In this document: positions 15,196-62,847 of the stretch, one piece after another
Numbering within the stretch: the first letter of the stretch is position 1
Layout: the number at the start of each line of letters is the position of its first letter
NCBI GenBank assembly: GCA_040390045.1
Contig: JAZJZC010000001.1
Span: 254,318-318,317 of the forward strand
DNA from: Patescibacteria group bacterium
Lineage (GTDB): Bacteria > Patescibacteriota > Minisyncoccia > Phycocordibacterales > SIBU01
DNA: 64,000 nt
Reading direction: 5' to 3'
The notes under the pieces: model-generated
What the model was told of the DNA's origin: nothing
Databases searched by the model: none
The model's input: only the letters and a program-made list of their open reading frames with translations
Made by a program: the position numbers and the translations under genes

Positions 15196-15259
15196 TTGAC
15201 AATCTTATTAATTCGTGCTAATAATATTCCAGATTCCGCAAACAAAAGAAGTTCAAAAA

Positions 15260-15784
15260 ATGAAAAAAACCGGTTTAACGACCGCAGAGGCCGAAACCCT
15301 CGCCGAACTCCTCACCAAAGCCAAATTCCCCCTCCCCAAGGAAGTCTTCGACGCCTGGACAGAGACCCTTCCCACCGGGGCTTTCGAGCTCTGCATCACT
15401 CGAAAAACTTCTGATGGCCTTGAAGTTTTCATGCTCCAGCGGCCCGGAGATGACAAGCACTGGCCGTTTGAATGGCACATACCCGGAACAGTCCTACGAG
15501 ACAAAGACACCTACCCGAAACTCTTTGGCCGCCTGATGAAAAGTGAAATTGGTGGCGGAAATTTCGGGAAACTCCGCCCTGTCGGAACTCGCATTTTTCC
15601 GAAGGGCGAAGGTCTGTACCGGTGTCGCCGTGGCCACGAAACCGCCCTACTTTACACAGTGGAGTTTCTCAAGGGAACCACTCCGGACAACGGCTGCTGG
15701 TTTCCAATCGACCAGCTCCCTAAAAACACTGTCTCCTTCCACCACACCCTCGTGGCGATGGTTCGGAAACATCTTGGGGTCTGA
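15260..15784 (+). CDS. hypothetical protein (GC-rich island)
   Basis: ORF with markedly higher GC than its surroundings; an intrinsic terminator follows it; no confident family assignment. Confidence 0.4.
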   Translation: MKKTGLTTAEAETLAELLTKAKFPLPKEVFDAWTETLPTGAFELCITRKTSDGLEVFMLQRPGDDKHWPFEWHIPGTVLRDKDTYPKLFGRLMKSEIGGGNFGKLRPVGTRIFPKGEGLYRCRRGHETALLYTVEFLKGTTPDNGCWFPIDQLPKNTVSFHHTLVAMVRKHLGV

Positions 15785-15802
15785 GCCAACCTCACATCAC
15801 AC

Positions 15803-15837
15803 GAAGACTTGCACCTTTTGGAGCAAGTCTTTTTTAT
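15803..15837 (+). terminator. Rho-independent terminator
   Basis: GAAGACTTGC-ACCTTTTGGA-GCAAGTCTT stem-loop followed by TTTTTATTT. Confidence 0.6.
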
Positions 15838-15856
15838 TTGAGTTATACTTATTGTC

Positions 15857-16714
15857 ATGATTATCATCAAAATCGAAGGGGGGCTGGGCAATCAGATGTT
15901 CCAATACGCGCTCGGGCGCAATCTGTCTCTGACTCACGGAAAAAACTTTAAAATCGACACCTCCTATCTACGAAAAAATAATCAAAGTGGCAGAACCTTT
16001 AGACTCAGCGGATTTAAAATTGTTACGACCGAAGCCACCAAAACCGAAATCAATCGCTACCGTTCGACATTAGAGAAATTTTTCGACCGTATTCGCCCGC
16101 GACCAAACAAGAAAAAAGTGCTTGAACTCAGCAACACCTTCGATCCTGAGGTTTTGAAACGCACCGATGGCTATCTTGTCGGCCACTGGAACGACGCGCG
16201 GTATTTCGAAAGTTCTGAAAATACCATTCTCGAAGATTTCAAACTACAGAAACCATTCGGAGCGGCGGCGGAAAAAATGGCCAGTTTTATTTTTGCCCAA
16301 CCAGAAGCCGTTAGTGTCCACATTCGCCGCGGAGACTATGTCTCAATTCCAAAAATCGCTGACGTCCACGGCGCTCTCCCACTTTCCTACTACGCCGAAG
16401 CCTGCGAAATCATCATGAAGAAAAAACCAAACGCTCATTTTTTCATCTCTTCAGATGATATTGCATGGGCCAAGAAAAATTTTCCTCCACACTACCCCGC
16501 CACATTCATTTCCGATCCAGAAATTCCTGATTACGAAGAAATGACACTCATGAGTTTGTGCAAACATCACATCATTGCCAATTCTACTTTCAGTTGGTGG
16601 GCAGCCCGACTCAATCAGAAAAAAGAAAAAATAATTATTGCTCCAAAAAATTGGTTTCGAGATACCTCGAAAGACGCGAGCAATCTAATTGCCAAAAACT
16701 GGATTCAAATTTAA
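15857..16714 (+). CDS. GT11 alpha-1,2-fucosyltransferase
   Basis: N-terminal IIIKIEGGLGNQMFQYA and HIRRGDY motifs are diagnostic of GT11 FutC/WbsJ-type fucosyltransferases. Confidence 0.8.
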   Translation: MIIIKIEGGLGNQMFQYALGRNLSLTHGKNFKIDTSYLRKNNQSGRTFRLSGFKIVTTEATKTEINRYRSTLEKFFDRIRPRPNKKKVLELSNTFDPEVLKRTDGYLVGHWNDARYFESSENTILEDFKLQKPFGAAAEKMASFIFAQPEAVSVHIRRGDYVSIPKIADVHGALPLSYYAEACEIIMKKKPNAHFFISSDDIAWAKKNFPPHYPATFISDPEIPDYEEMTLMSLCKHHIIANSTFSWWAARLNQKKEKIIIAPKNWFRDTSKDASNLIAKNWIQI

Positions 16715-16756
16715 ATTGATATTTAGGCGCTTGTATACTAAAATCCAGTCTATTAT

Positions 16757-17749
16757 ATGAAAATTTTAATCACAGGAATTGCCGGCCTTTTGGGTTCTCG
16801 ACTGGCTGATTGGATTTTGGAAAACACCGAGCATACCGTTGTCGGCATCGATAACTTAAGCAGCGGCTATCTTGAAAATGTCCACAAAAAAGCCACGTTC
16901 TACAATCTAGATTTAAACGATCCTAAGCTCGACGAGATTTTCCAGAAACATAAACCCGATTACGTTTTTCACTTCGCCGCCTACGCCGCCGAAGGTCTTT
17001 CGCCATTCATCAGAAAATATAATTACACCAACAATCTCGTGGCGACCGCCGGCGTCGTCAATAATTGCATCCGACACGATGTAAAAAGATTAGTATTCAC
17101 TTCTTCGATGGCAGTCTATGGGAAAGGCAATCCACCATTTAAAGAGACTGACGAGCCAAACCCTATCGATCCGTACGGCGTAGCAAAACACGCCTGCGAA
17201 CGCGACATTCAAATCGCCGGCATTCAACACAATCTCGACTGGTGCATCATTCGTCCACACAATGTGTATGGCATCAAACAAAACATTTGGGATAAGTATA
17301 GGAATGTTTTGGGCATTTGGATGTTCCAACATTTAAACGGAAAGCCTCTAACTATTTTCGGTGACGGTGAGCAAACACGAGCGTTTAGCTATATTGACGA
17401 TTGTTTAGAACCACTTTGGAAAGCGGCGATCGATCCCCGCGCGTCAAAACAAATTATCAATTTGGGAGGTACTAAAGAAATTAGCATCAACGAAGCGAGC
17501 AAAATTTTACTGGAAGTCATGGGTGGCGGAACCATCGAACACCTTGAGCAACGTCACGAAGTAAAAGATGCGCATCCAACCTGGCAGAAATCTGTCGAAA
17601 TTCTTGATTACAAAGATGTCACCTCTCTCAAAGAAGGACTCGCGACCATGTGGCAGTGGGCCCAGAAACAACCGATGAGGGAACAATTTGTCTGGGAAAA
17701 ATACGAAATCGAAAAAGGTATGTATTCGTTTTGGAAGAACAAAAAGTGA
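16757..17749 (+). CDS. NAD-dependent epimerase/dehydratase (GalE/UDP-sugar 4-epimerase-like extended SDR)
   Basis: ILITGIAGLLGS, DNLSSG, YGVAKHACE (YxxxK). Confidence 0.7.
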   Translation: MKILITGIAGLLGSRLADWILENTEHTVVGIDNLSSGYLENVHKKATFYNLDLNDPKLDEIFQKHKPDYVFHFAAYAAEGLSPFIRKYNYTNNLVATAGVVNNCIRHDVKRLVFTSSMAVYGKGNPPFKETDEPNPIDPYGVAKHACERDIQIAGIQHNLDWCIIRPHNVYGIKQNIWDKYRNVLGIWMFQHLNGKPLTIFGDGEQTRAFSYIDDCLEPLWKAAIDPRASKQIINLGGTKEISINEASKILLEVMGGGTIEHLEQRHEVKDAHPTWQKSVEILDYKDVTSLKEGLATMWQWAQKQPMREQFVWEKYEIEKGMYSFWKNKK

Positions 17750-17799
17750 TTCTTTCTGTCTCTTCTCTGACTTGAAAACTTTATAACTTTAAAAACTTT

Positions 17800-18828
17800 A
17801 TGAACTCGAGAGTTAGCGTCATCATGCCTGCGTACAACGCGGAAAAATATATTCGCGACGCGGTACAGAGTGTACTTGCCCAGTCTTTTAGAGACTGGCA
17901 ACTTTTTATCGTTAATGACGCCTCAACAGATGGTACAGGAAAAATCCTGGCTGAATTTTCCGGAGAGTCTCGCATTAAAATTATTAACAACACACAAAAT
18001 CTCGGCTCAGTGGTTTCGAGGAATGTTGCGTTTGCTCAAATTCAATCTCAATACGTGGCAATCCTAGATGCCGACGATCTCGCGGAGCAAACACGCTTCG
18101 AAGAACAAGTACAATTTCTCGATGCTCATCCTGATTTCGGACTGGTAGGATCGTGGACGAAAATCATTGATGAAAGTGGCCGCGCCACTGGGCAAATTGG
18201 CCGTGACACCACCCCTGCTGAAAAAGCTCCGATCAAACTCCTCTTCCACAATTTTTTAGCGTTTTCTTCGGTGATGATGCGGCGTACTGCCATGCCGGAA
18301 ATCCCCTTCACCGAAAACTCAGTGCCCGCAGAAGATGTCGATTTGTATTGGAAAATGATTCACCAATGGAAATTCGCCACCCTACCAAAAGTTTTAATCA
18401 GCTACCGCTCGCACCCAAAAGGTATTTCCAAAGTGTACGCGGCAAAAAAACAAGAGGTGATGGACAGGCTAATCAGGGCAGAACTTAATCGTTTCGGCAT
18501 CGAGCCAACAGCGGAAGAATTACAAATTCATCGAACCAATTACGGCTACGCGGGTGCCGACATCGAGCAATTCCTCAGCAAACGAGAGCAGTGGCTTTTG
18601 AAACTGATTGAAAAAAATCGCGAGGCAAAGATTCATCCTGAAAAAATCTTCTCTGAAGTGGTTGCAGAAAAATGGCTTGAGAGTTGCGACGCCAATGCTC
18701 GGTTAGGTTTTAAAACCTGGAAAATTTTTCAACTCTCGCCACTTTCTCAGAAAATTTCATGGCTAAAAAATGGCAAAATGTTATCGAAATTCTGCGTAAA
18801 ATGCCTGCTGTCAAAAGATACAATATAG
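17800..18828 (+). CDS. GT2 family glycosyltransferase
   Basis: VSVIMPAYNAEKYI...IVNDASTDGT...DADD motifs. Confidence 0.7.
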   Translation: MNSRVSVIMPAYNAEKYIRDAVQSVLAQSFRDWQLFIVNDASTDGTGKILAEFSGESRIKIINNTQNLGSVVSRNVAFAQIQSQYVAILDADDLAEQTRFEEQVQFLDAHPDFGLVGSWTKIIDESGRATGQIGRDTTPAEKAPIKLLFHNFLAFSSVMMRRTAMPEIPFTENSVPAEDVDLYWKMIHQWKFATLPKVLISYRSHPKGISKVYAAKKQEVMDRLIRAELNRFGIEPTAEELQIHRTNYGYAGADIEQFLSKREQWLLKLIEKNREAKIHPEKIFSEVVAEKWLESCDANARLGFKTWKIFQLSPLSQKISWLKNGKMLSKFCVKCLLSKDTI

Positions 18829-22177: not shown

Positions 22178-22251
22178 CATATACCCCTTATTCGTGAGAA
22201 TAAGGGGTATATGGTAAAAAATAAAATCCCCGCAAGCAAACTTGCGGGGAT
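22178..22251. terminator. two adjacent stem-loops between convergent genes
   Basis: CATATACCCCTTATTC-GTGA-GAATAAGGGGTATATG (15-bp perfect stem) followed by TCCCCGCAAG-CAAA-CTTGCGGGGA. Confidence 0.6.
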
Positions 22252-22267: not shown

Positions 22268-22993
22268 CTAACTTCCCGAGTCGCGCCACTCAAGGTACTG
22301 CAACGCACGAGTGATACTCACAAGGTCGCCTTTCGCCTCATATGTGTGAATGCGCTGGAGCTCGGTCGCGATCAACTGCCGTCGTGTACCTCTCAGCGTC
22401 CCTTGCGAATGGGCGACCGTTTCAGCCCAAGGCAAGGTAGCGCCAACTTGGCAATAGATCTTGAGTGTGGGAACACCGACATCGTACGCTGCGCTCACCG
22501 CCGAGATAAACGCGCGGGGCAGGTGGAACGGCGGCGCGATGATGCACAACTTCGAAAGGTGGTGATGTTGGGCATATTTCATCAATGCCAGCGATTCGGA
22601 GAAGGTATTGAGTGGCTCGAAACAGGGCACCATGTTGATTTTTTCCCTACGAACACCGCATGACACAAAGTGCGTAATCCACGGATAAGAACCGGGGTAA
22701 CCCTTGTTTGTGCCATCTGCGTCGTCAAGAATCAGCAACTGAGATACTCCGCCGGAGAGGCTGAGCCGAATCGCCGGCACAAAGACGGAACCCTGGTTAT
22801 CTGACGTCTGAGTGTACAGATACGCCGGCATATGACTCTCGGGCGGCAACGCGTCCGTTAGGACGATGGTGGTGAGTTGCTGAAGCAGTATTTCTTCTGG
22901 GCTAATTTGGTGGGCCACAAAGCCTCCTTTTGGTTGAATTTTGACGGACAATCCTTGAAACCTCTCGCACGAGCGGTTTCTGATCTGGCACAA
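22268..22993 (-). CDS. DUF218/YdcF-like protein (GC-rich island paralog 1)
   Basis: CIIAPPFHLPRAF and the upstream EPLNTFSESLALMKY region fit DUF218; the N-terminal region is alignable to paralog 45530..46177; no in-frame ATG near the 5' end (TTG at 22993 or GTG), so the start is uncertain. Confidence 0.45.
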   Translation of the reverse strand: MCQIRNRSCERFQGLSVKIQPKGGFVAHQISPEEILLQQLTTIVLTDALPPESHMPAYLYTQTSDNQGSVFVPAIRLSLSGGVSQLLILDDADGTNKGYPGSYPWITHFVSCGVRREKINMVPCFEPLNTFSESLALMKYAQHHHLSKLCIIAPPFHLPRAFISAVSAAYDVGVPTLKIYCQVGATLPWAETVAHSQGTLRGTRRQLIATELQRIHTYEAKGDLVSITRALQYLEWRDSGS

Positions 22994-23115
22994 TTCTACA
23001 CAGATTTGTTACTGTGTCAATGACTCCTTCTGTTCCTCCTTCTTAAAGGAGGTGGCTGAGTCTTCGAGGCCGGAGGATTTTAAATCCCTCCCTCATTAGA
23101 ATGTCGCGCTCCCTT

Positions 23116-25470: not shown

Positions 25471-26142
25471 ATGAAAAAAAGACTTCTGCAGAAGTATGCA
25501 GCGTTGGTGCGCGTGGTTCGCGAGGAACACATAAAGGCTGGCATGGAAGCGCAGGGACACTGCTTCTATCACTGCTATGCGGCAGCCAATATGTGTCTCA
25601 CAATTGCGCCGAACAGAAAAATTGCTGAATTGGCGTGGGTAGCGGCGATGCTCCACAACATTGACCACATTTTCGGTAAAAACGTCGTCCAGTGGTACAT
25701 CAATCGCTATCTGGACCTGACGCCCCTTTGCAAACCCGAGAGAGCAATTATTCTCGACGCTGTGCTCAAGCATGGAGACTTCAATTACTCGACCGACGGC
25801 ATTGTCCTTCGAGTCCTGAAGGATGCGGACATGATCGTGAACATGGGACTCACGGTCGCCATGCGCTCCGCCCGGTTTCGCCCGACTACACCGCTTTTCA
25901 ATCCGCGATTTCTCATGCGACGCGATCCTTCAGCAACGTTCAAAGAGCCGGGCACGATCCTCCAAAATCTCAACCACGTTCTCGCGTGGTGGGAAGATGG
26001 TTGGATCCGCCTGCCGAAATCGAAACCCATCGCTCGGCGGAGGTACAAGGCGCTTAGGGCTTATGTCAATGAACTGACCCGACAGCTTGTGGAAGAAGGT
26101 CTGCTCCGGCCGAAGTTCCCCAAAAAACTCATCGTCACCTAA
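25471..26142 (+). CDS. hypothetical protein, tandem paralog A (GC-rich island)
   Basis: His-rich motifs HCFYHC, LHNIDH, KDADM; clearly paralogous to 26278..26961 (shared ELAWVA, LHNIDH/IHNVDH, WIRLPK/WFRLPK); its own terminator follows. Confidence 0.45.
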   Translation: MKKRLLQKYAALVRVVREEHIKAGMEAQGHCFYHCYAAANMCLTIAPNRKIAELAWVAAMLHNIDHIFGKNVVQWYINRYLDLTPLCKPERAIILDAVLKHGDFNYSTDGIVLRVLKDADMIVNMGLTVAMRSARFRPTTPLFNPRFLMRRDPSATFKEPGTILQNLNHVLAWWEDGWIRLPKSKPIARRRYKALRAYVNELTRQLVEEGLLRPKFPKKLIVT

Positions 26143-26151: not shown

Positions 26152-26190
26152 CGACCGTTCCGATCAACATCGGAACGGTTTTTCTTTTTT
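26152..26190 (+). terminator. Rho-independent terminator
   Basis: GACCGTTCCGAT-CAACAT-CGGAACGGTT followed by a T-run. Confidence 0.65.
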
Positions 26191-26277
26191 CTCTACCTTC
26201 CCGCACACTATTGACTCAATCCAAAATACATGTTAATGTGCCGTCTAGTTAGAAAACGAAATTCGGTCTTAGAAAAA

Positions 26278-26961
26278 ATGAAACCTCAGAATATCCTACT
26301 ATCCCGATATGGGACATTGGTGGAAATGGTTAGGGCGGATCACATCGCAAAAGGAGCGATCGGCAAAGGACATGACTTCTATCACGCATTACGCGTGGCA
26401 AACATGTGCCTCAAAATTAGCGACTATGACTCCCTGATTGATGAGCTGGCCTGGGTTGCTGGGTTAATTCACAACGTCGATCATCTGTTCCCAGCAAACG
26501 AAATCGGCAGTAACCTTATCCGGTATTTTGATGCGACCAGCCTCTGCGCCGAATACCGCCACATCATAAAGCTCGCGGTTGAACGGCACAGTGGCCGCAA
26601 TCATCCGGACGACAGCGATGTGCAAATCTGCCTCATGGACGCCGACAAAGTGGTGTGCCTCGAAGCTGACGTGATTATGCGCGCGGCACAATTTGTTTGC
26701 CATCTGCCGACGTTTGATCCGCGTTTTGTTCGGACCGACGATCCATCAGCCAATTACCGGAACCCGAAAACGGTGATTCGTGATTTGTTAGGTGTCCTTG
26801 AATGGGTCGATCTAGATGGCTGGTTCCGACTGCCTAAAGCTCTGGAGATGGCACAGGAGCGCGCAAAGTTCATCCGACTTTTCATCAACACCTTCGCCAG
26901 ACAACTGGAGGCCGCGAACATGCTATCGCCGGAATTTCCGGAAGAGCTTATCACCAACTAA
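26278..26961 (+). CDS. hypothetical protein, tandem paralog B (GC-rich island)
   Basis: Start at ATG 26278 by alignment with paralog A (MKPQNILLSRYGTLVEMV vs MKKRLLQKYAALVRVV); its own terminator follows. Confidence 0.45.
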   Translation: MKPQNILLSRYGTLVEMVRADHIAKGAIGKGHDFYHALRVANMCLKISDYDSLIDELAWVAGLIHNVDHLFPANEIGSNLIRYFDATSLCAEYRHIIKLAVERHSGRNHPDDSDVQICLMDADKVVCLEADVIMRAAQFVCHLPTFDPRFVRTDDPSANYRNPKTVIRDLLGVLEWVDLDGWFRLPKALEMAQERAKFIRLFINTFARQLEAANMLSPEFPEELITN

Positions 26962-26975: not shown

Positions 26976-27008
26976 CAACCGCCCTTGTAACCAAGGCGGT
27001 TTTTCTTT
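26976..27008 (+). terminator. Rho-independent terminator
   Basis: AACCGCCCTTG-TAACC-AAGGCGGTT followed by TTTTCTTT. Confidence 0.65.
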
Positions 27009-27017
27009 GGTTATATT

Positions 27018-28791: not shown

Positions 28792-28795
28792 TTTA

Positions 28796-28838
28796 AAAAG
28801 CCCCCCGATTCGCAAAGCGAATCGGGGGGCTTTTTTTA
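28796..28838. terminator. bidirectional Rho-independent terminator
   Basis: AAAAAGCCCCCCGATTCGC-AAA-GCGAATCGGGGGGCTTTTTTT between convergent genes; shares its core with the hairpin at 15157. Confidence 0.8.
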
Positions 28839-36522: not shown

Positions 36523-36999
36523 ATGAAAAGGTACAAAAAAAACCTCTGGGTTCGGATCATTGAAAAACTGGACGACGACTTTCTCGGCATCTGTCCACTC
36601 TGGGTCGCCTTAGTTTTATGCGCTTTAGTCATCTCAGCCGTTTGCGGGTTCTATTGGGTTTCCAAACCCCTCGCACCCGCCGATGAACGATTTGGAGGCG
36701 TTGTTGCTATTCTAAACAAGGATAGCGGCGCACAGGGCAGGAACCTATACCGATTTGCGACACAACTCACAAACTCAATGGAAATATCCTTGAGAGATGC
36801 TTCCACAGAAAATATTCGCTTTTTTGCAGACGTGCCGGCCAGCGAGCCGATGTGGTACATCGAAAAAAAAGTAAGATTCCACCTTTGTGTTGGAGTTCCA
36901 TACGCAATTGAGGTTCACATCCACTCGCCTCGTGACCTTCCTGGGGTCGGGTTAGAATTAAACCCTCGCGGTAACCGCCAAGTTCTCGCCTTCGAGTAA
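36523..36999 (+). CDS. hypothetical membrane-anchored protein (GC-rich island)
   Basis: Single N-terminal TM segment, GC-rich; a terminator follows. Confidence 0.35.
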   Translation: MKRYKKNLWVRIIEKLDDDFLGICPLWVALVLCALVISAVCGFYWVSKPLAPADERFGGVVAILNKDSGAQGRNLYRFATQLTNSMEISLRDASTENIRFFADVPASEPMWYIEKKVRFHLCVGVPYAIEVHIHSPRDLPGVGLELNPRGNRQVLAFE

Positions 37000-37004: not shown

Positions 37005-37042
37005 CTAGGCAGATGATCCAATCGGATTGTCTGCCTATTTTC
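37005..37042 (+). terminator. Rho-independent terminator
   Basis: TAGGCAGAT...GTCTGCCTA stem followed by TTTTC. Confidence 0.5.
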
Positions 37043-37077
37043 TATACTATTTAATTTGTTAAAACCTCTCTTTCTCT

Positions 37078-37103
37078 ATGTAACCTTTCGAGCGAAAGGT
37101 TAT
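37078..37103. repeat. 26-nt palindromic element ATGTAACCTTTCGAGCGAAAGGTTAT (left copy)
   Basis: Perfect internal inverted repeat AACCTTTCG-AGC-CGAAAGGTT; a near-identical copy lies at 37898..37925. Confidence 0.75.
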
Positions 37104-37184
37104 AACTTAAAATTTGACAAAACAATAATTTTCGTGTTATCGTGGCGCGAGTCACTTCGAAAAATTCAACTGAGAAAGGCCAGT

Positions 37185-37808
37185 ATGGCTAGTCTTTGGT
37201 ATGCACTTTTCAGCTGGGATGTACCGACCGCAACCCATCAAGAACTTGCCACTGCCCACGCGATCGTAACGCAAGCTCACGGGAGAATGAGGAACGGAAG
37301 TGCTGGGCCAGGAAATCGAATCATGGCAAATGTCACCCGGCTTCTGCACTACCAATTTCCTCATCTTCCAATTATGCCACAAGAGGATGTGGCGTTGGCC
37401 GATCCCACACTTCCCTATTACACCGTCATTGGTGGATTACGGGACACTCGCTGCTTCATGGCAACCGTCGCCAAGAAACACAACACCACGGACGGCGGAT
37501 CTGCAACCGGTGCCTCGAACATGCAATGGAACACTCACGCCATTGCACGAGCCCAAGCGGAAATCTGCAAGCAAAATGGTTGGACGAGGATCATTGTGGT
37601 TGCGTTTCCGATACATTGGGGACGAGCCGCAGCGGTCTACCGGAAACTGGGGTTGACCCCTCTCATGGCTGAGATGCCTGCAGATCTCGGAGCCTACATG
37701 CATCCATATCTGATTCCCAGCGGCCTGCTTGGAATTCAAACTGTCAGCAAGTTCCGAAAGCGAGAACTGCTCTGCCGAATTCTTTTCTGGCTCAAGAATT
37801 GGATTTGA
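37185..37808 (+). CDS. DUF218/YdcF-like protein (GC-rich island paralog 2)
   Basis: IIVVAFPIHWGRAAAVYRKLG motif; GAAAGG RBS before ATG 37185; strongly GC-rich. Confidence 0.4.
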   Translation: MASLWYALFSWDVPTATHQELATAHAIVTQAHGRMRNGSAGPGNRIMANVTRLLHYQFPHLPIMPQEDVALADPTLPYYTVIGGLRDTRCFMATVAKKHNTTDGGSATGASNMQWNTHAIARAQAEICKQNGWTRIIVVAFPIHWGRAAAVYRKLGLTPLMAEMPADLGAYMHPYLIPSGLLGIQTVSKFRKRELLCRILFWLKNWI

Positions 37809-37833: not shown

Positions 37834-37869
37834 AGCGCCGATCCAAGATTTGGTTCGGCGTTTTTTTCT
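37834..37869 (+). terminator. Rho-independent terminator
   Basis: GCGCCGATCCAA-GAT-TTGGTTCGGCG followed by TTTTTTTC. Confidence 0.65.
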
Positions 37870-37897: not shown

Positions 37898-37925
37898 ATG
37901 TAACCTTTCGAGCGAATGGTTACAT
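37898..37925. repeat. 26-28 nt palindromic element ATGTAACCTTTCGAGCGAATGGTTACAT (right copy)
   Basis: Direct repeat of the element at 37078 with one mismatch in the core; the two copies bracket the GC-rich DUF218 gene and its terminator. Confidence 0.75.
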
Positions 37926-38090
37926 AGAGAAATGCGAGATAAAAAACTAAATTTATTTTTTATTTCAAAATAGAATTTTTGCAGTCAGATGCAGTTCGAG
38001 GCGCAAGTGATTTTGCGACTAAAACGTATTCATATACGTGGCAGGAGCAAAATCGTGAAGCAACGAAGAAGGGCGCTGACTGCAAAAGTT

Positions 38091-38869: not shown

Positions 38870-39523
38870 TCAAACGACAGGTTCAAGAACGATCGCCTCG
38901 CGGAAGCCGACGCGAGGGTTGTCATCGGCAGCGTCACCCAATTTGATGTTCACCGCAAGGCCCAAATGATTTTCATACAAGGCGTGAACCACCGGGCCAC
39001 TCACTGGCAACAAATTTTTTGGAAACACCGTTGTAGTTTCTTGATCAAAAACCTCGGCCGTTACCCAATTCAAAAAGCAGCAGCCAATAACATATGCGCT
39101 GAGAGGAAGCGGCACGGTCTGCCGACCAGCAAGCCAGTGTAAGGCATACTTGGCGGGTAATCCCATTGTTCCCGCAGTTGGACATAGATCCCGTTGCACA
39201 ATGTAAAGTTTCGACCCGTTAGGTCTATCGTTCTCTCCGATATGTTCTTGAGCTTCATCGGAAACTCGAATATTGACCCCGGGAAAGTATCTCGCCTTTT
39301 CTAGGGTTTCCCAAACAGTAAGCCCCGGATCGTAGATGACCAAAACCTCCTTCCATGGAAGCCGCGCGGGAAGTTTGAATTTTTTCTGTACATCAAGTTG
39401 CGGTCCAAAATACTTGAGATCAACCCGCGCCATATGTGAAAACCACTTATGGCAATCCGTATCCTCAATCGCAAAGCCGGTAGGAACAACCGGCGCTGCC
39501 TGAACTCTTGTTTGTTCTGACAT
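38870..39523 (-). CDS. hypothetical protein
   Basis: ORF with moderately elevated GC; ATG at 39523 (ORF track begins at a GTG). Confidence 0.35.
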   Translation of the reverse strand: MSEQTRVQAAPVVPTGFAIEDTDCHKWFSHMARVDLKYFGPQLDVQKKFKLPARLPWKEVLVIYDPGLTVWETLEKARYFPGVNIRVSDEAQEHIGENDRPNGSKLYIVQRDLCPTAGTMGLPAKYALHWLAGRQTVPLPLSAYVIGCCFLNWVTAEVFDQETTTVFPKNLLPVSGPVVHALYENHLGLAVNIKLGDAADDNPRVGFREAIVLEPVV

Positions 39524-39669
39524 ATTTGAAGTACCTTTCACTGCTTTTTCTCTCCGATTTCTAACACATTTTTAGAAAAACACAAGGGGTCGTAATAATT
39601 TTCAGCCGGTGCTACAATGCTTTTTGCAGCCATTCTGCTGCAATTAACGCGTTCGGATGAAATTACTTT

Positions 39670-45446: not shown

Positions 45447-45529
45447 ACTTCATTGTAACTTAGAAACCTCGTCGCGACTTACTTGCTAAAGTATATCATT
45501 CGTGTTATTGTTTTTTCAGTAAAAAAGGT

Positions 45530-46177
45530 TTGCGATCCAGCCAACCTGAAAGCGAAAGGGAGTTTGTGTTTGACACCTTATTGCAGTACCTCGTAAGCAA
45601 GTGGGGAGTCGAAAACGCGTTGCCTCCAGAGGCTCCGCCAATTGACTTCTTCATAGGAATTTCCTATGGCATGACCCGCACAAATCTTACAGTTGCCACC
45701 GAACGAATCACCCGTCTTACTGCGGAGATGGCGAGAGCGCAGCAAGCGCCAATTATCATTAGTTGCTGTGAATACTTATTTCGAGGCGCAGCATTTAGCG
45801 AGTGGCAACTGCGGCATCGAATTTTCGAAACCTTTCGTGTTCGATACTACCGAGCCGGTGACATGAATAATTCGATGCAGGAATCTCGGCAAATCCTCAA
45901 ATGCGTCTCCGAACATGGATTACCGACAAGACACATCGGCATCGTCACGGGAATTGGCCATTCTCGGTTCGTTAGTGAGCGGTACGGGAAACTTTTCCCG
46001 AACTCGAAAATCACGATTACCTGTGTTCCTTTCGACTCAGAATATCAACCGGATCACCCAGCCTGGATTCAGCGGGGACCGTGGAGGTGGCTCTTCGCTC
46101 ATGTTGCAAGGCAGATACTCTATCACGTGCGTGGCGAGAAAATGGCCGACATGCAACATTGGGTGCCAAAGGCATAA
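45530..46177 (+). CDS. DUF218/YdcF-like protein (GC-rich island paralog 3)
   Basis: IGIVTGIGHSRFVSERYGKLF motif; its N-terminus aligns with paralog 22268 (ENALPPEAPP vs TDALPPESHM); the ORF begins at a TTG (no ATG until codon 47), so the start is uncertain. Confidence 0.4.
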   Translation: MRSSQPESEREFVFDTLLQYLVSKWGVENALPPEAPPIDFFIGISYGMTRTNLTVATERITRLTAEMARAQQAPIIISCCEYLFRGAAFSEWQLRHRIFETFRVRYYRAGDMNNSMQESRQILKCVSEHGLPTRHIGIVTGIGHSRFVSERYGKLFPNSKITITCVPFDSEYQPDHPAWIQRGPWRWLFAHVARQILYHVRGEKMADMQHWVPKA

Positions 46178-46211
46178 TTATCCAAACTGAACTCTCGCAG
46201 TTCAGTTTTTT

Positions 46212-50605: not shown

Positions 50606-51781
50606 TTAGTTCGATTGGTACGCCCCCTCAATTGAATTTTTGTACTCATGTAAATACTGTTCTTTAGTTTTTGCCAATTCGTCCACCGCGTGCGGTGCAA
50701 TTTGCAAAGCATAAAAAGTTCTCAACTGATTATCTTCTATGAGTTGCGAAATGGTGGAAACAAAACAATTCAAATCATTAACAGGACAATCAAATGAGTG
50801 ACCTTTGTGATTAAGTAGTTCCGGTGCGATGCCCACATCAGATGAAACGGCAGGACAACCACTTGCCACTGCTTCAAAAAGCGCTAACCCAAAACCTTCA
50901 TACAAAGAAGTTTGAAGATACAAATTGGCAGTTTTGTAATAGGAAATCGTGTCATGTTGCCAACCTTCAAAAACCACATTTTTAGAAAGCTGTAAGCTGT
51001 TAGCTTGTAGCTGTAAGCTTCTTTTCAGTGGTCCATCACCAACAATCACCAGTCCCGTCGTTGGATATTTTTTAACCAACTTTTTTAAAATTCGCAGAGC
51101 AAACTGAACATTTTTTTCATACGTTAACCGAGCCACTACCAAAATAATAAAACCGAAATGGGAATACTTTTGCTGGAGACTGAAACTTGGTTCGGCGCTT
51201 CGAAGTTTTTCAACGTCCGTAAAAATCGGCAGTATCTTAGTTCGTAATTCGAAATTCCTAATTCGTAATTCTTTCAAAGAATTGAAAATTCTTTGACTAA
51301 CAACACGAATGGCATTCGCTTTGGGCAACACGCGCCTTGCAATTAAAACACGCACCCTATTGAGAAAAGAGGCTCTTTTAAAATACGGATTAAGAAAATC
51401 AGTGTGAATTTGAATGTGCAGTGGCAACTTGAACCGCGTGGCAATTTTCATCGCCACGTAACCGGTTTCAAAAGGATCCTGCCCTGTAATAACGGAATTA
51501 GGAATTAGGAATTTCGAATTACGAATAATACGCTTCCCAATCCAAATGGCGTCAAAAATATAAAACCATCGATTCCAAGAATTTGTACGATATATCGTAC
51601 AATTAGGAGCGATCTGTATCTTATGCTCCGTGGTCTGTGTTCCGTGGTCTGTTCTCCTCGTCGAGAATACAACGATGTGAAGTTCCTCAAAAAGCCCCGC
51701 ATATTCAACCATCCGCGCGCGAACTGCGCTTCCCTCTTCAAATATTTTCCGATCACTGCTTATTGATAAAACCTTGGTCAT
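50606..51781 (-). CDS. GT4 family glycosyltransferase
   Basis: C-terminal VIVGDGPLKRSLQLQANSLQLSKNVVFEG and YLQTSLYEGFGLALFEAVASGCP (E-x7-E region). Confidence 0.65.
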   Translation of the reverse strand: MTKVLSISSDRKIFEEGSAVRARMVEYAGLFEELHIVVFSTRRTDHGTQTTEHKIQIAPNCTIYRTNSWNRWFYIFDAIWIGKRIIRNSKFLIPNSVITGQDPFETGYVAMKIATRFKLPLHIQIHTDFLNPYFKRASFLNRVRVLIARRVLPKANAIRVVSQRIFNSLKELRIRNFELRTKILPIFTDVEKLRSAEPSFSLQQKYSHFGFIILVVARLTYEKNVQFALRILKKLVKKYPTTGLVIVGDGPLKRSLQLQANSLQLSKNVVFEGWQHDTISYYKTANLYLQTSLYEGFGLALFEAVASGCPAVSSDVGIAPELLNHKGHSFDCPVNDLNCFVSTISQLIEDNQLRTFYALQIAPHAVDELAKTKEQYLHEYKNSIEGAYQSN

Positions 51782-52794: not shown

Positions 52795-52991
52795 ACCGTT
52801 AATACAATAAAGGGTATTGAACCACAGGGCAAGCCCTGCACCCTAAATGAAATCAAAAACTCGCCTTCCTTCAGCGGTGCAGTGGGTAATCAACCCTTTG
52901 TTGCGACTTCGACTCGGACGCTGTGTACAATCAGAATTGTACACGCGCTCCTCGCTCGTCGCAATAAAAAACAAAGCCCGAGAGAGCTTTG

Positions 52992-53849
52992 TTACACGAA
53001 TATTTTCTCCGGCACAAGCACAGGTGACCTGAACTTACAGAAACTTAGTAATCCGAGATCAGCTTCGTGGCCGCCGCGACAAGACATGATCGTTCCCGCC
53101 ATCAAAGCACTGTGGTGACTGAGTGCTGTGCCACCCAAAATATCTTGCACTCGGTGGAATAGGAATTTCTGAAGAGCTTGAGCTTTTGAGTATTTCTGCG
53201 GCCAACAAACGGTGTTGATCATCGGTGAACCGAAGAGCGATGCCAACCAACAAAAGGCATACCGCCGCTTCGGAGGCCAACCTTGAGCTCTGGCCCGAAA
53301 GATTTCCTCAAGCACTTCCAGATCTCCAGGAAAAACCAAGTGAGCGTTTTTTTCCCCAAGCCCTGGGTAATTGATTTCTACCCTAACTTGGAGATTTGGC
53401 ATACTCTCAAACCTGATCGGGCACAAAGTGACTGAGCGACCCGAAACTGAATAGCCCCACTCGTACTTTCGCGTTGGCGTTATCCACGAAACGTTCTCGT
53501 CAATCTCAAGGGTTTTAGGCTTAACTACATCCCACAAATCCCAACACCGCCCGTGGTACGGAGGCCAACCCGAGCCCGTAACGATGACACCGTCGAGCCC
53601 GGTAAATCGCAGAGGGAGAACGTGCTCAATGATCCGAAGCTTCAAGCCTTCGTGATGAAGGTACAGAAAGCGAAACAATTTACTGTACTTGGCAATCCGC
53701 CAATCGATAGGAAGAAGTAAGTTATGACCCAGATACGGTTTCCAATGCCACCCGGGCTCGTCCGTTGGTGAAAGCGTGAGCCACGCCTTTCTTCCGAAGC
53801 AGTCAAGACCAGTGATAGTCACCGGTTTCTTTAAACGCAGTTTTTTCAT
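52992..53849 (-). CDS. LpxC-family deacetylase (UDP-3-O-acyl-N-acetylglucosamine deacetylase-like)
   Basis: FLFHRVQDILGG matches the LpxC HKxLD motif; HEGLKLRIIEHVL and TGLDGVIVTGSGW agree with the LpxC fold; ATG at 53849; GC-rich. Confidence 0.5.
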   Translation of the reverse strand: MKKLRLKKPVTITGLDCFGRKAWLTLSPTDEPGWHWKPYLGHNLLLPIDWRIAKYSKLFRFLYLHHEGLKLRIIEHVLPLRFTGLDGVIVTGSGWPPYHGRCWDLWDVVKPKTLEIDENVSWITPTRKYEWGYSVSGRSVTLCPIRFESMPNLQVRVEINYPGLGEKNAHLVFPGDLEVLEEIFRARAQGWPPKRRYAFCWLASLFGSPMINTVCWPQKYSKAQALQKFLFHRVQDILGGTALSHHSALMAGTIMSCRGGHEADLGLLSFCKFRSPVLVPEKIFV

Positions 53850-53910
53850 AGGAACAACCAAAGTTTTCTAAACAAACCTTACTGAAAAAAATCCTGCTTG
53901 TCAAACAAAA

Positions 53911-57825: not shown

Positions 57826-57861
57826 TTGACCATATTATAGTATGTATTCTAATAATAGACC

Positions 57862-57904
57862 AAGCCCCCGCTCCGCCTTTGGCGGAGCGGGGGCTTATTT
57901 TTAC
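57862..57904. terminator. strong stem-loop/terminator
   Basis: AGCCCCCGCTCCGCC-TTTG-GCGGAGCGGGGGCT followed by TATTTTTTAC. Confidence 0.7.
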
Positions 57905-57945
57905 AAAAGAAAAACCTCCGGCCGAAACCGAAGGTTGAGAGAGAT

Positions 57946-58497
57946 TCAGGCGATTGCCATTGAGGCCACGAAGAGGTCGTGCCGGAATTTTGGGCAAAGC
58001 CATAGTGGCCGAAGTTTTTCAACCAACTCCGAAAAACCAATCTGTGAAAAAACCTGCCGGCATGCTTGCAGGAAATCTGCAAAAACCGCAAAAGCCGACT
58101 TCGCAGCAAGTTTGACAACCTGTGCCGCAACACAAATGTGTTCGAATTCGACTTCACCCAACACAAGCCAGGCACGTACCATGCTCCGAAGCTCCGAGCC
58201 ACATTCTTGCATTTGCCCACGGCCATAGGCGGCTGCGACCCTTGCGGCCCTTTTCGGTTTCATTTTGGGAAATGCGTCAGCCAGTATTGACTGGTCAGCA
58301 ACATCAATTTCCGTTCGGCGCGCAAAAGCCGAAATTGCTTCAATCTGGAGCGTGGTGTAACCTGAATTTTTAGTTTTCACCTGAATACTTATTTTGATTT
58401 GGAGATCGATACCGATGAGAAGAACTGATTGTTCAACACACCGAGCATCTGGATAAATAGTATATAAAATGAAAAGTTGTTTGTCAACAACAGGCAA
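57946..58497 (-). CDS. hypothetical protein (doubtful; TTG start)
   Basis: 183-aa ORF with no ATG near its 5' end; AT-rich 5' part and GC-rich 3' part; VLLIGIDLQIKISIQV loosely resembles a RuvC/YqgF-like N-terminus. Confidence 0.2.
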   Translation of the reverse strand: MPVVDKQLFILYTIYPDARCVEQSVLLIGIDLQIKISIQVKTKNSGYTTLQIEAISAFARRTEIDVADQSILADAFPKMKPKRAARVAAAYGRGQMQECGSELRSMVRAWLVLGEVEFEHICVAAQVVKLAAKSAFAVFADFLQACRQVFSQIGFSELVEKLRPLWLCPKFRHDLFVASMAIA

Positions 58498-58519: not shown

Positions 58520-58565
58520 AAATTAATTTAAAAAAAATAGCCCGATCCTGTGGTGGATCGGGCTG
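58520..58565 (-). terminator. Rho-independent terminator for the minus-strand gene ending at 58581
   Basis: AGCCCGATCC-TGTGGT-GGATCGGGCT with a plus-strand A-run (a minus-strand U-run) after it. Confidence 0.65.
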
Positions 58566-58580
58566 ATTAGCAAACACGGC

Positions 58581-58853
58581 TCAAGCCGCGACACCGCGAG
58601 CGAGATTGCCTCGCCCGCCAAACAGGAACGCCTGCCGTGCGGCAAACTCCGCGTCCGTTCCCGCCCACATGGCAACTCCCGGATCAACCGAGTCGAGAAC
58701 TCTGAGTCCCGCGCGCCTGAGAAGGCCGATTGGGATTTTGGTTCTCTCCTCTATTGGCAAACTCAGAACGTGGGCGCGGATCAGGTGACCGTTGCCGTTG
58801 CGGTGACTGTGGGCGCCTCCATTGATGATGGCCGGCAGAACTAATGCTGACAT
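58581..58853 (-). CDS. hypothetical small protein (GC-rich)
   Basis: 91-aa ORF from ATG 58853; its own terminator follows. Confidence 0.3.
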   Translation of the reverse strand: MSALVLPAIINGGAHSHRNGNGHLIRAHVLSLPIEERTKIPIGLLRRAGLRVLDSVDPGVAMWAGTDAEFAARQAFLFGGRGNLARGVAA

Positions 58854-58949
58854 AATTACTGCTTTGTGATTACTTACTACGTAAACTGGGGGGCTGGGAA
58901 AAACAATACTCCTCGAGTACTTATGTGTCAACGAAAACCTGTGTCTAAC

Positions 58950-61269: not shown

Positions 61270-61608
61270 ATGACAACATCACTTGAACAAAAACATTGCC
61301 GAGCCTGCGAGCTCGGTGAAGGAAAACTAAATCACGCTGACATCGAAGCTTTTATGACCCACACGCCACAATGGACTGTGGTAAAAGATCACGAGATTTT
61401 TCGCGACTTTAAATTTAAAAACTTTGCTGAAGCGCTCGCCTTTGTAAATAAAGTTGGTGCGCTCGCCGAATCCGAAGGTCATCATCCGGATGTCTCGTTC
61501 GGTTGGGGCTACGTCAAAATTACCCTCTCAACTCATGCGGTAGATGGACTCTCAGAAAATGATTTTATTCTCGCGGTGAAAATAGATACACTAGAAAATA
61601 GTCGGTAG
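61270..61608 (+). CDS. pterin-4a-carbinolamine dehydratase (PCD/DCoH)
   Basis: 112 aa with the EGHHPD signature and FVNKVGALAE region. Confidence 0.8.
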   Translation: MTTSLEQKHCRACELGEGKLNHADIEAFMTHTPQWTVVKDHEIFRDFKFKNFAEALAFVNKVGALAESEGHHPDVSFGWGYVKITLSTHAVDGLSENDFILAVKIDTLENSR

Positions 61609-61635
61609 TAAGTAGACATGTAGAAAAACAAAAGA

Positions 61636-61672
61636 AAAACTTCTGACAAAATGACTGTCAGAAGTTTGAAAA
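61636..61672. terminator. bidirectional terminator between convergent genes
   Basis: CTTCTGACA-AAATGAC-TGTCAGAAG 9-bp stem flanked by A- and T-runs. Confidence 0.6.
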
Positions 61673-61673
61673 T

Positions 61674-62222
61674 TTAGCAAAAGCCCTTAGACGATTCTCT
61701 CACCGGCTCAGTCGCATCAAAAAACACTCTGTCTCCGGTCACGCCACCATCCTGATGCCGAGGCTGGTGTTGAGAAATACGGTTGGCGCCAAGATGCCAG
61801 CCGCCACCTTCCTGCTCGGCGCGGATTGCCCAATCAGTGCCCTTAAGATGGAAAATATTCTCCGCATGTTCGTGAACAACCAGGAACCGATCGATCGTGG
61901 GATCGGGAACCTCACCAGATGGTTGAAGCGCCAGTAACCCAAAGATATGGGCGAGCGGCACTGTGCGAGTTCCCCTTCCCAAAGCGGCAGATATCTCGTC
62001 GTTAGTTGCCCGATCGAGAAGTTTCCCGGCCTTAATTCTCATTGCCGGAACATTTTCCTCAACATAGTCACGAATCAAAACTTTAAAGTTCTGACCGAAA
62101 AGGGCGAATCGAACACTCCTTACAGAATGTTCTTCCTGAAACCCCTCCCGCGCTAAGAAATACGGAACCCGCGGTAATGTAACTGCACCAATGATCTCTA
62201 TCAGATTTGTGGGATAGTTCAT
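61674..62222 (-). CDS. hypothetical protein (GC-rich)
   Basis: 182-aa ORF, ATG at 62222, His-rich motif HEHAENIFH. Confidence 0.35.
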   Translation of the reverse strand: MNYPTNLIEIIGAVTLPRVPYFLAREGFQEEHSVRSVRFALFGQNFKVLIRDYVEENVPAMRIKAGKLLDRATNDEISAALGRGTRTVPLAHIFGLLALQPSGEVPDPTIDRFLVVHEHAENIFHLKGTDWAIRAEQEGGGWHLGANRISQHQPRHQDGGVTGDRVFFDATEPVRESSKGFC

Positions 62223-62322
62223 AACTCAACTTTCTGTCTTTGGCCTTTAGTGGCCGTTTTCTACCGGAAACCTTATCCATAAGTCGCCCCCCTGTCAAAT
62301 ATAAAAATAAAAAGCACCACTA

Positions 62323-62760
62323 CTATAGGGTGCTTGCTTGAGCGCTGATTTCGATACTGTAACGCTCCTTTAAAATTTGCGTAAATCGGTCGACGTCGCC
62401 GGAGCATTCGCCATCGAGAATGGTTGTCATGTAGACTCGGTGATCGAGAGTCAAAACACTTCCCAGACACCAGATCCAGAAAATATTTTTGGCTAAAGCC
62501 GGCGTCGGTATCGCACGCGGATAACAAACAAAGTATGTGCCGGAACGTGGCGACTGACGAGTGTACAAACGTTGCAGAGTAGTTTCATCGTTTGGCCGAA
62601 CCAACTCAATTTCGTAGTGATTGCCTACTGGCACCTGACCGAAGTGGTCGTAAAATTCCTCCGCTTCAAGAAAAAAGTGCGCGGGAGAGGTGGAGAGATG
62701 GCAACGGGCTTGAAACACATGGGTCACAAGGCCAGAGTGCACTGCGATTTCGATATTCAT
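62323..62760 (-). CDS. hypothetical protein (GC-rich)
   Basis: ORF from ATG 62760; a terminator hairpin overlaps its stop codon. Confidence 0.35.
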   Translation of the reverse strand: MNIEIAVHSGLVTHVFQARCHLSTSPAHFFLEAEEFYDHFGQVPVGNHYEIELVRPNDETTLQRLYTRQSPRSGTYFVCYPRAIPTPALAKNIFWIWCLGSVLTLDHRVYMTTILDGECSGDVDRFTQILKERYSIEISAQASTL

Positions 62761-62847
62761 GGTAAAGAAAGAACAGGAATTTTCTAGCGACAAACTAACA
62801 CAAACAGAAAATTTTGGCCACCTTTGTTCAACCTTTCTTTTGTGTAG

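Follow-up and report, generated by a model that had tools for sequence, protein, structure and literature searches.

Scattered along a 64,000-nucleotide stretch of a Patescibacteria genome (contig JAZJZC010000001.1 of GenBank assembly GCA_040390045.1, positions 254,318 to 318,317; hereafter the window, numbered from 1) are gene-sized patches whose guanine-plus-cytosine (GC) content rises above that of the glycan genes around them. We refer to these patches as islands 1 to 8 and to their genes as I1 to I8b. With a probability of roughly 60%, we regard them as resident, separately transcribed accessory genes of a Paceibacteria surface-glycan locus and its adjoining region that stand out mainly by the composition of the proteins they encode. 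What we observed of their composition, anatomy, folds and synteny is described below, together with what we infer about their biochemical roles and the reason for their composition.

A first-pass annotation of this DNA had picked out eight GC-rich segments and estimated them by eye at 55-60% GC on a 40% background. The segments are real, but the contrast is smaller than was thought, being about 50% against 42%, or ~8 points instead of 15-20. From left to right their GC content is 0.528, 0.530, 0.510, 0.480, 0.503, 0.494, 0.505 and 0.488 (0.502 pooled, against 0.421 for the rest of the window and 0.431 for the entire window), and a sliding-window profile, far from uniform, shows a bump at each of the eight positions. 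The 41 background genes have a mean GC of 0.422 (standard deviation 0.017, range 0.375-0.462), whereas the 11 island genes tested lie at 0.481-0.551 (z-scores of +3.4 to +7.5), with zero overlap between the two sets (Mann-Whitney p = 2e-7). GC is elevated at codon positions 1, 2 and 3, and codon usage differs between island and background genes across codon families. Normalised for GC, the dinucleotide signature of the islands taken together departs from the background by a delta* of 0.081 (resampling null 0.024 +/- 0.007, maximum 0.047). By their z-scores and delta*, the islands thus have the atypical composition by which recently acquired genomic islands are recognised. A ninth GC-rich gene lies outside the eight segments (38870-39541, GC 0.49). 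The genes are as follows.

15260..15784, plus strand: I1, 174 aa, ATG start, GC 0.55, degenerate Nudix-like; same gene call in the Logan contig
22268..22918, minus strand: I2, 216 aa, GTG start, GC 0.55, DUF218/YdcF-like
25471..26142, plus strand: I3a, 223 aa, HD-domain hydrolase, divergent tandem paralog, 43% identical to I3b
26230..26961, plus strand: I3b, 243 aa, HD-domain hydrolase
36523..36999, plus strand: I4a, 158 aa, ATG start, no assigned family; gene call in the Logan contig
37185..37808, plus strand: I4b, 207 aa, ATG start, GC 0.53, divergent DUF218 family member
38870..39523, minus strand: extra GC-rich gene, 217 aa from its ATG, GC 0.49, no assigned family
45530..46177, plus strand: I5, 215 aa, probable TTG start, possibly DUF218-like (weak)
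52992..53849, minus strand: I6, 285 aa, ATG start, GC 0.50, LpxC-fold putative zinc-dependent deacetylase
57946..58380, minus strand: I7a, small protein of ~144 aa carrying an AISAFARR motif, proposed GTG start (uncertain)
58581..58853, minus strand: I7b, 90 aa, ATG start, GC 0.62, no assigned family
61674..62222, minus strand: I8a, 182 aa, ATG start, no assigned family
62323..62760, minus strand: I8b, 145 aa, ATG start, no assigned family

Toward the right end of the window, the genes unrelated to glycans (RsmI-like, Pterin_4a, DUF4015, TrwB-like) have a GC content of 0.43-0.45, and background genes that lack a Pfam match are ordinary as well, at 0.41-0.44. The local baseline is therefore ~43-44% GC and no peculiarity of glycan genes, and the contrast is explained neither by low-GC glycan genes nor by a lack of known function. 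We accordingly rejected the idea of a low-GC glycan locus set inside a higher-GC genome, as the non-glycan genes just named do not fit it and GC-rich outliers are rare in the housekeeping regions of relatives (12 of 980 genes, or 1.2%, compared with about one gene in five in the window). The clustering of GC-rich genes in and beside the glycan locus is real.

When the GC excess was partitioned gene by gene into an amino-acid effect and a synonymous effect, the former was found in every island gene (+0.029 to +0.126), while the background maximum is +0.025. Lys is at about half its usual level in the island proteins; Ile, Asn and Phe are scarcer as well, whereas Arg, His, Trp, Cys and Pro are enriched. 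Orthologs in the related loci L004, L006, L009, L171 and L172 keep the amino-acid effect at +0.03 to +0.08. The synonymous effect is small in most islands (+0.007 to +0.03) and large only in I1, I2, I3a, I3b and I7b (+0.05 to +0.08); in I1, for example, the excess splits into +0.049 from amino acids and +0.077 from synonymous sites. Across orthologs the synonymous effect ranges from -0.005 to +0.058. In every relative examined the orthologs are GC-richer than their neighbors: 0.52 versus 0.45 and 0.48 versus 0.44 for the HD gene, 0.51-0.56 versus 0.39-0.45 for I2, 0.52 versus 0.45 for I6 (0.58 versus 0.50 in a housekeeping context), and 0.51-0.56 versus 0.44-0.45 for I7a.

We then followed the I2 family through metagenomes, at 80 loci from hosts of 33-69% GC, 55 of which carry enough flanking DNA to be measured. 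The GC content of the family follows that of the host (r = 0.85, slope 0.82), and a fixed intrinsic GC of the family was rejected for that reason. Outside the subclade that includes the window's gene (37 loci), the excess is +0.027 at codon positions 1 and 2 (dGC12, p = 3e-5) and about zero at position 3 (dGC3). Inside the subclade, dGC12 is +0.075 (7/7 loci) and dGC3 is +0.081 (6/7), with position-3 GC (GC3) of 0.52-0.69 in the genes while that of the hosts is 0.37-0.61. Since the amino-acid effect is inherited by orthologs and, for I2, is family-wide, the sequences point to family-specific protein composition, conspicuous in a low-GC host, as the general heritable cause. This agrees with the alternative offered in the first-pass annotation, namely a gene class under a different compositional constraint. 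An old transfer from GC-richer relatives, or biased gene conversion or another process that raises GC locally, is a possible source of the synonymous excess.

As candidate causes of the synonymous GC excess, dual coding and selection on mRNA structure were both rejected. Open runs in alternative frames do not exceed in length those of synonymous-codon shuffles (all fractions at least 0.27), and folding z-scores are like those of the background (p = 0.21).

The island genes had been described as promoterless, which proved wrong. We scanned positions 14000-64000 with a sigma-70-type consensus, scoring matches out of 12, and the best matches of the region belong to island genes: all three 11/12 matches sit directly upstream of I1, I2 and I7a, and matches of 9-10/12 with a perfect TTGACA precede I4b, I6, I7b and I8a. 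A perfect TTGACA -35 box with a well-spaced -10 box is thus found at 7 of the 13 island genes. Intrinsic terminators with T-runs follow nearly all of them. The hairpins that had been taken to bound the islands are therefore present, but they are ordinary terminators and not distinctive, as operon ends outside the islands carry equally strong ones (6791-6928 and 28792-28835), which indicates that such hairpins mark the ends of transcription units. The island genes lie on both strands, scattered between operons. Their predicted signals are listed here.

15196..15225, plus strand: I1 promoter-like site, TTGACA-18-AATAAT, 11/12
15803..15839, plus strand: I1 intrinsic terminator, AAGACTTGC...GCAAGTCTT followed by a T-run, read from the sequence
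22226..22251, minus strand: I2 intrinsic terminator
22993..23020, minus strand: I2 promoter-like site, TTGACA-16-TAGAAT, 11/12
26153-26180: I3a terminator
26983-27015: I3b terminator
37006-37037: I4a terminator
37114..37143, plus strand: I4b promoter-like site, TTGACA-18-TATCGT, 10/12
37836-37867: I4b terminator, read from the sequence
38833-38857: terminator of the extra GC-rich gene 38870..39523
46184-46208: I5 terminator
52970..52993, minus strand: I6 intrinsic terminator
53876..53904, minus strand: I6 promoter-like site, TTGACA-17-TAAGGT, 9/12
57861..57936, minus strand: two tandem terminators past I7a (57913-57936 and 57861-57897), of which 57861-57897 serves the plus strand too
58459..58487, minus strand: I7a promoter-like site, TTGACA-17-TATACT, 11/12
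58539-58564: I7b terminator
58903..58931, minus strand: I7b promoter-like site, TTGACA-17-TATTGT, 10/12
61637-61667: I8a terminator
62270-62298, minus strand: I8a promoter-like site, TTGACA-17-TAAGGT

Two genes had been credited with TTG or GTG starts. I2 does begin with GTG, five bases past a perfect AAGGAGG ribosome-binding site, and I5 probably begins with TTG. The other apparent TTG/GTG starts are artefacts of open reading frame (ORF) extension, with an ATG downstream (I1 at 15260, I4a at 36523, I4b at 37185, I6 at 53849, I7b at 58853 and I8b at 62760); two "TTG starts" in island 7 are the TTGACA -35 boxes of promoters.

We also note that the unusual arrangement TTGACA-17-TAAGGT is common to the regions upstream of I6 (53876-53904) and I8a (62270-62298), and that I5 (45505-45529) and I6 have TTTTTTCAGTAA..AGGTTTG in common just ahead of the start codon. 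These shared upstream sequences of I5, I6 and I8a may represent a common regulatory signal.

Related loci show several of the islands in the same slots. L091 is collinear with the window over 18.9-25.5 kb, with identities of 72% and 69% for two GT4 proteins, 47% for I2, 50% for GFO, 86% for the epimerase and 84% for MT13, and its I2 ortholog has a GC content of 0.52 among neighbors at 0.36-0.45. In L004 and L005 an HD ortholog lies between the same GT4 gene and methyltransferases as in the window, and L006 (GCA_030647495.1) has both the I2 and the HD orthologs in their slots; I3b is 58% identical to its slot ortholog in L004 and 53% in L006. L171 (GCA_005801925.1) is collinear with the window over 42-63.5 kb, from TP_methylase to MT13, with an I6 ortholog in place (50% identity, GC 0.52 versus 0.45) and an I7a homolog in the same slot (32% identity, E = 4e-5). 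The I5 slot of L171 is a 297-bp gap in which the last 30 codons of I5 remain (17478-17567, 53% identity, E = 8e-7), which indicates a loss in L171 and not a gain in the window. GC-rich I7a homologs occur near the RsmI-like gene in L015 and L012, distant GC-rich I8a homologs occur near the RsmI-like gene in L086 and L068, and the I2 family recurs beside MT13-epimerase-GFO and PMT_2 modules. Slot-sharing orthologs are 36-58% identical, and shared neighbors 58-89%. From this comparison I2, I3, I6 and I7a appear to have been inherited in place. The first-pass annotation had held that identical islands at the same positions in all relatives would speak for ancient core genes; for about half of the islands, relatives do have the gene at the corresponding position, while I7b, I8a and I8b are missing from L171.

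Elsewhere in L004, at 6138-6872, is a Pfam-less 244-aa gene with a DUF218-like look (…VGGGE…, …LVAIGVHIPRT…) and a GC content of 0.54 against 0.45 for its locus; tblastn detected no homology between it and the window's island genes. A further I2-family member, 35% identical, lies at 10001-10864 of L008, a 39%-GC contig with archaeal-looking neighbors (HTH_10, DUF87) and no glycan genes, where it shows no GC elevation.

Three genes had been named as DUF218/YdcF-like paralogs, and this holds for two of them. I2 family members share the invariant motifs GYPG, NT.TES, PFHxPRAF and HSQGTL. The I2 model (predicted local distance difference test, pLDDT, 90) has E. coli YdcF, the founding structure of DUF218, as its best Protein Data Bank (PDB) match (3CA8, E = 5e-4, TMq 0.54), followed by LmbE-type de-N-acetylases, and I2 is the only one in which a YdcF-type fold was found. 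The I4b family, with 82 representatives among 1.8 billion searched, ties I2 to DUF218 (PF02698): I4b alone reaches 16.6 bits, short of the 27.6 cutoff, whereas DUF218 is matched by 25 of the 35 family members scanned (best E = 2e-14), and the I2-family profile matches the I4b-family profile at 95% probability (E = 2e-8). I5 is collinear with the DUF218-type profile of I4b and matches it weakly (E = 0.0016, probability 16%). BLASTP among the three genes detected no paralogy, and the link required profile comparison. Relative to the known DUF218/YdcF-SanA-ElyC group, then, the I2 and I4b families agree in profile and I2 in its nearest fold, and a cell-envelope role would fit their genomic context. 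They differ from that group in that I2 and I5 lack a direct Pfam DUF218 match and I4b stays below the cutoff, in the GYPG and HSQGTL motifs peculiar to I2, and in the LmbE-type character of its next-best structures.

The tandem pair of island 3, which had been listed as paralogous unknowns, are indeed paralogs at 43% identity but are not unknowns, being HD-domain hydrolases: I3b scores 22.7 bits with Pfam HD (PF01966, cutoff 22) and matches PDB 3DJB over residues 45-227 (E = 4e-4), while I3a scores 18 bits, under the cutoff. I1 falls just short of Pfam NUDIX (PF00293; 20.7 bits against 21.1), its Nudix box is degenerate by eye, and it has no significant PDB sequence match. Small unknowns had also been reported, and I4a, I7a, I7b, I8a and I8b are indeed without an assigned family. 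I4a has no homolog in the loci fetched, none was found for I8b, and a PDB sequence search with 38870-39523 and I8a returned nothing significant.

The proposed LpxC-like deacetylase is borne out at the level of fold. The AlphaFold2 model of I6 has a pLDDT of 83, and the top 50 PDB matches found by Foldseek are all LpxC (E down to 1e-17, template-modelling score, TM, ~0.70-0.74), the match extending over the full length. Within the I6 family E75-H76 is invariant, and HRVxD and GH are kept in 7/8 members; we take the E-H, HxxxD and GH motifs to correspond to the zinc-binding and catalytic residues of LpxC, as mapped onto the E. coli enzyme. In contrast to LpxC itself, I6 is only 15-18% identical and has no Pfam match even at E up to 10, with PF03331 (LpxC) carried only by the distant family member P0031. 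There are no other lpx or lipid A genes among the annotated genes of the window, and bacteria of the candidate phyla radiation (CPR) are not known to make lipid A. For these reasons the substrate of I6 is presumably not the lipid A precursor but a different N-acetylated sugar intermediate.

Pfam annotation of its genes identifies the window as a very large locus for surface glycans. Present are export and nonulosonic-acid genes (a Wzm/Wzt-type ABC exporter, NeuB and a cytidylyltransferase), many glycosyltransferases (GT2, GT4, GT10 and GT11), and Methyltransf_13/14, epimerase/dehydratase, aminotransferase, carbamoyltransferase, PMT_2 and GtrA genes, and from ~55 kb rightward the window passes into non-glycan genes (TrwB-like ATPase, DUF4015, Pterin_4a and RsmI-like). 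A database protein identical to I6 bears the annotation "Patescibacteria group bacterium", and the RsmI-like protein at the right end is 72-75% identical to genes of metagenome-assembled genomes (MAGs) labelled Ca. Taylorbacteria, Ca. Nomurabacteria, Parcubacteria or Paceibacteria; on this sequence evidence the host is a CPR bacterium of the Paceibacteria group (Patescibacteria). Two Logan contigs from run SRR26324623 (of 31 and 26 kb) and the 323,682-bp NCBI MAG contig agree with the window in the proteins encoded and in gene order, making an assembly chimera, which had been raised as a possibility, unlikely. O-antigen and capsule clusters are usually lower in GC than the genome. Like other surface-polysaccharide loci, this one has genes that vary in GC content and conservation, with conserved sugar-nucleotide enzymes and divergent transferases; it differs from them in that its outliers are GC-richer than both the locus and housekeeping-type genes, and are tailoring enzymes instead of transferases.

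Taken together, these results suggest a model in which each unit would consist of a sigma-70-type promoter, a single gene and an intrinsic terminator (island 3 being a paralog pair split by a terminator), wedged among operons of glycosyltransferase, methyltransferase and sugar-nucleotide genes. Most units would encode small hydrolases or tailoring enzymes, namely the DUF218/YdcF-like proteins (two or three of them), the LpxC-fold deacetylase, both HD phosphohydrolases and the degenerate Nudix-like protein, which may trim or modify sugar-nucleotide or lipid-linked glycan intermediates. Scarcity of Lys, Ile, Asn and Phe in the proteins, together with an abundance of Arg, His, Trp, Cys and Pro, would lift GC at the first two codon positions where the genome is otherwise at 42-44% GC. 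This composition would belong to the gene families, so that orthologs inherit it, and a second component, the synonymous excess that is strong in I1, I2, I3a, I3b and I7b, would vary among lineages. The genes would be inherited in place, diverging as much as or more than neighboring glycosyltransferases, and some slots would lose or swap their gene over time.

Several observations weigh against this model. Protein composition alone leaves the synonymous excess of +0.05 to +0.08 in I1, I2, I3a, I3b and I7b unaccounted for, and it does not explain why I2 genes of the window's subclade hold a GC3 of 0.52-0.69 regardless of host GC3. The distinct dinucleotide signature of the island pool is as expected of foreign DNA. 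I7b, I8a and I8b have no counterpart in the collinear L171, and the same-slot evidence covers I2, I3, I6 and I7a, plus the I5 remnant, but not I1, I4a, I4b, 38870-39523 or I8b. The background baseline was drawn from the genes inside the 64-kb window and not from the whole source MAG. Finally, I4b lies within an inverted repeat, each arm of which is itself a hairpin and which encloses the promoter-gene-terminator unit.

37071..37102: inverted repeat around the I4b unit, left arm (32 nt, palindromic)
37901..37932: inverted repeat around the I4b unit, right arm (32 nt, 91% complementarity with the left)

An ancient horizontal acquisition from donors of 50-60% GC by an ancestor of the clade, followed by incomplete amelioration in which protein composition lags behind synonymous sites, is the alternative that survives best, although we consider it unlikely. 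The amelioration model for horizontally acquired genes is reportedly that of Lawrence and Ochman in 1997. The islands resemble acquired islets in being gene-sized, in their atypical GC, codon and dinucleotide composition, and in a synonymous component that varies as if decaying; the range of -0.005 to +0.058 among orthologs looks like different stages of decay. The I2 family occurs in hosts of 33-69% GC, with the same module in hosts at 0.49-0.53 (L096, L097 and L132), and the codon shift runs through all families including AAG, GAG and CGG, as a GC-richer donor would give. The dinucleotide signature also fits. However, the islands sit at conserved positions among genomes whose neighbors are 58-89% identical, which makes any transfer old, and yet several lineages retain the synonymous excess. 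At the slot-ortholog identities of 36-58%, and with L091 neighbors at 69-86%, synonymous sites would be expected to have equilibrated long ago, but GC3 is still raised by +0.19 in L091 and by +0.21 in L095. Outside the subclade the I2 family matches host GC3, so amelioration does operate here. No mobility genes were found in the window, nor any GC-rich donor; the labelled matches are Patescibacteria or "bacterium" and the others are unlabelled metagenomic sequences.

A more speculative possibility, which we advance tentatively and think rather improbable, is that these separately transcribed, fast-diverging tailoring genes are actively kept GC-rich, at both synonymous and protein level and regardless of host GC, through some gene-local mechanism, for instance biased conversion at recombination hotspots, or through repeated in-place replacement from GC-richer relatives.

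A gene-local GC-raising process, such as GC-biased gene conversion at recombination hotspots during diversification of the locus, seems quite unlikely. The small units would then be favored tracts for crossover or conversion, with AT-to-GC changes accumulating at every codon position and the proteins diverging faster. GC-biased gene conversion in recombining bacterial genes is said to have been described by Lassalle et al. in 2015. The resemblance lies in higher GC, notably at third positions, in particular genes that also diverge faster. In the islands GC is higher at all three codon positions, divergence exceeds that of most neighbors (47% identity for I2 versus 69-86% in L091), the excess persists over lineages irrespective of host GC, and the genes sit at operon junctions among neighbors with mosaic identities of 33-89%. 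The synonymous effect of most islands is nevertheless small (+0.007 to +0.03), and in the window GC is ordinary at the most conserved neighbors, genes that would anchor homology better.

Codon adaptation of highly expressed genes, with strong promoters and selection for C-ending codons raising GC3, is very unlikely. Although the best promoter matches of the scanned region are at island genes, and NNC is preferred over NNT (TTC 0.49 vs 0.27 and ATC 0.48 vs 0.27), AAG, GAG, CAG and CGG are higher too. Translational selection in bacteria does not usually raise these codons, which makes it an unlikely cause of the synonymous excess, where AAG, GAG and CGG rise as well. In addition, ribosomal protein S16 and rpoB in L172 are not GC-enriched, and the excess is mostly one of amino-acid composition.

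The first-pass annotation had proposed, as its other alternative, repeated insertion of foreign promoterless cassettes by an integron-like, MITE-like (miniature inverted-repeat transposable element) or other mechanism. Recent insertion of this kind is now highly improbable and already largely refuted. It would account for the atypical composition and dinucleotide signature, for the inverted repeat that brackets I4b, and for the slots that differ between the window and L171 (I7b, I8a and I8b, with the I5 slot empty in L171). Like integron arrays, the islands are small single-gene units, many of unknown function, with odd composition and a hairpin past each gene. Integron arrays, however, need an integrase and attC sites and consist of promoterless genes, contiguous and in one orientation, under a common promoter, and within the window the islands show none of these features. 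They have strong promoters of their own and occur in both orientations; their hairpins are terminators with T-runs and are unalike in sequence; and relatives have I2, I3, I6 and I7a in matching slots, while the "empty" I5 slot contains a remnant. Pfam annotation of the window genes and a tRNA scan found no integrase, transposase, recombinase or tRNA, and a repeat search found no attC-like or other repeat family shared among island boundaries; the only recurring boundary hairpin pair (15156-15197 and 28796-28837) consists of two similar terminators, one of them away from the islands. The marks of mobility sought in genomic islands (mobility genes, tRNA or flanking direct repeats) are thus lacking in the window. 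Nor are the sites generally empty in relatives, as I2, I3, I6 and I7a are present and I5 has left a remnant, with I7b, I8a and I8b absent from L171. A collection of viral contigs held no relatives of the three families scanned (I2, HDb and I6), and the proteins scanned had no matches to PHROGs phage families or PADLOC defence systems. A MITE would have terminal inverted repeats with a target-site duplication and be multi-copy; flanking repeats were seen at I4b only, no further copy of them turned up in the window or among 174 loci, and a target-site duplication was not visible.

That the islands are artefacts, through chimeric assembly or through non-coding or structured-RNA segments misread as genes, is extremely unlikely, since ORFs on both strands in islands 2 and 7 and the several island ORFs without known homologs are outweighed by agreement between the Logan and NCBI MAG contigs, empty Rfam and tRNA scans, homologs, conserved motifs and confident folds for I2, I3, I4b and I6, alternative-frame ORFs no longer than shuffles, and ordinary mRNA folding. 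Structured RNA was itself rejected as a candidate when Rfam, at gathering thresholds, and the tRNA scan of the window found nothing.

The resident-gene reading makes these ordinary accessory genes of known kinds and involves no new mechanism. It serves as a corrective, in that gene-sized, hairpin-bounded GC bumps in CPR genomes should not be taken for mobile cassettes unless promoters and synteny have been checked; our literature searches turned up no description of such a pattern. It also adds annotation for enzyme families that previously had no usable database label: a well-conserved YdcF-like family with invariant motifs, a second and divergent DUF218 family, an LpxC-fold deacetylase and paired HD hydrolases. 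All of these recur in Paceibacteria in linkage with the same sugar-modification modules, and they may reasonably be considered for roles in glycan tailoring, in a cell envelope about which little is understood. The real puzzle is the synonymous GC excess of some island genes, which persists across diverged genomes. Should biased conversion or replacement in place prove to be its source, the excess would help to trace recombination in bacteria that have not been cultivated, and if the genes are actively kept GC-rich, GC bumps would be a readable footprint of cell-surface diversification.

The window contains other repeats. The terminator hairpins at 15156-15197 and 28796-28837, of which the first alone adjoins an island, have the core CCCCGATTCGC...GCGAATCGGGG in common and are 76% identical over 42 nt. 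Two GT4 genes each contain the perfect 20-nt palindrome TTGTACGATATATCGTACAA (45192-45212 and 51582-51602), in differing reading frames and 180-250 nt downstream of the start codons. Its 18-nt core, TGTACGATATATCGTACA, is exact in the L171 ortholog (17982-17999), where the protein is only 67% identical, and also occurs in the unrelated Paceibacteria contig L045 (1308-1325) with no similarity in the flanks. The palindrome looks like a DNA-level site, be it an operator, a recombination site or a restriction-modification target. Near the second copy, the GT4 gene at 50606-51781 has a 31-nt inverted repeat (51241-51271 and 51495-51525, 97% complementary, 223 nt apart), and the 26-nt direct repeat TTGTGTTCTGTGGTCTGTGTTCCGTG (44921-44946 and 51621-51660) is common to both GT4 genes.

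At the left end of the window, a 57-nt direct repeat (2-58 and 6879-6935, 84% identical) stops right at the start codons of the genes at 52-981 and 6929-7594; it was not found in related loci. The second copy forms the 3' arm of a long leader stem at 6791-6935 that extends up to the AUG (minimum free energy -46.7 kcal/mol, z = -7.3). Judged by its position and folding, the repeat could be a shared regulatory leader of two operons.

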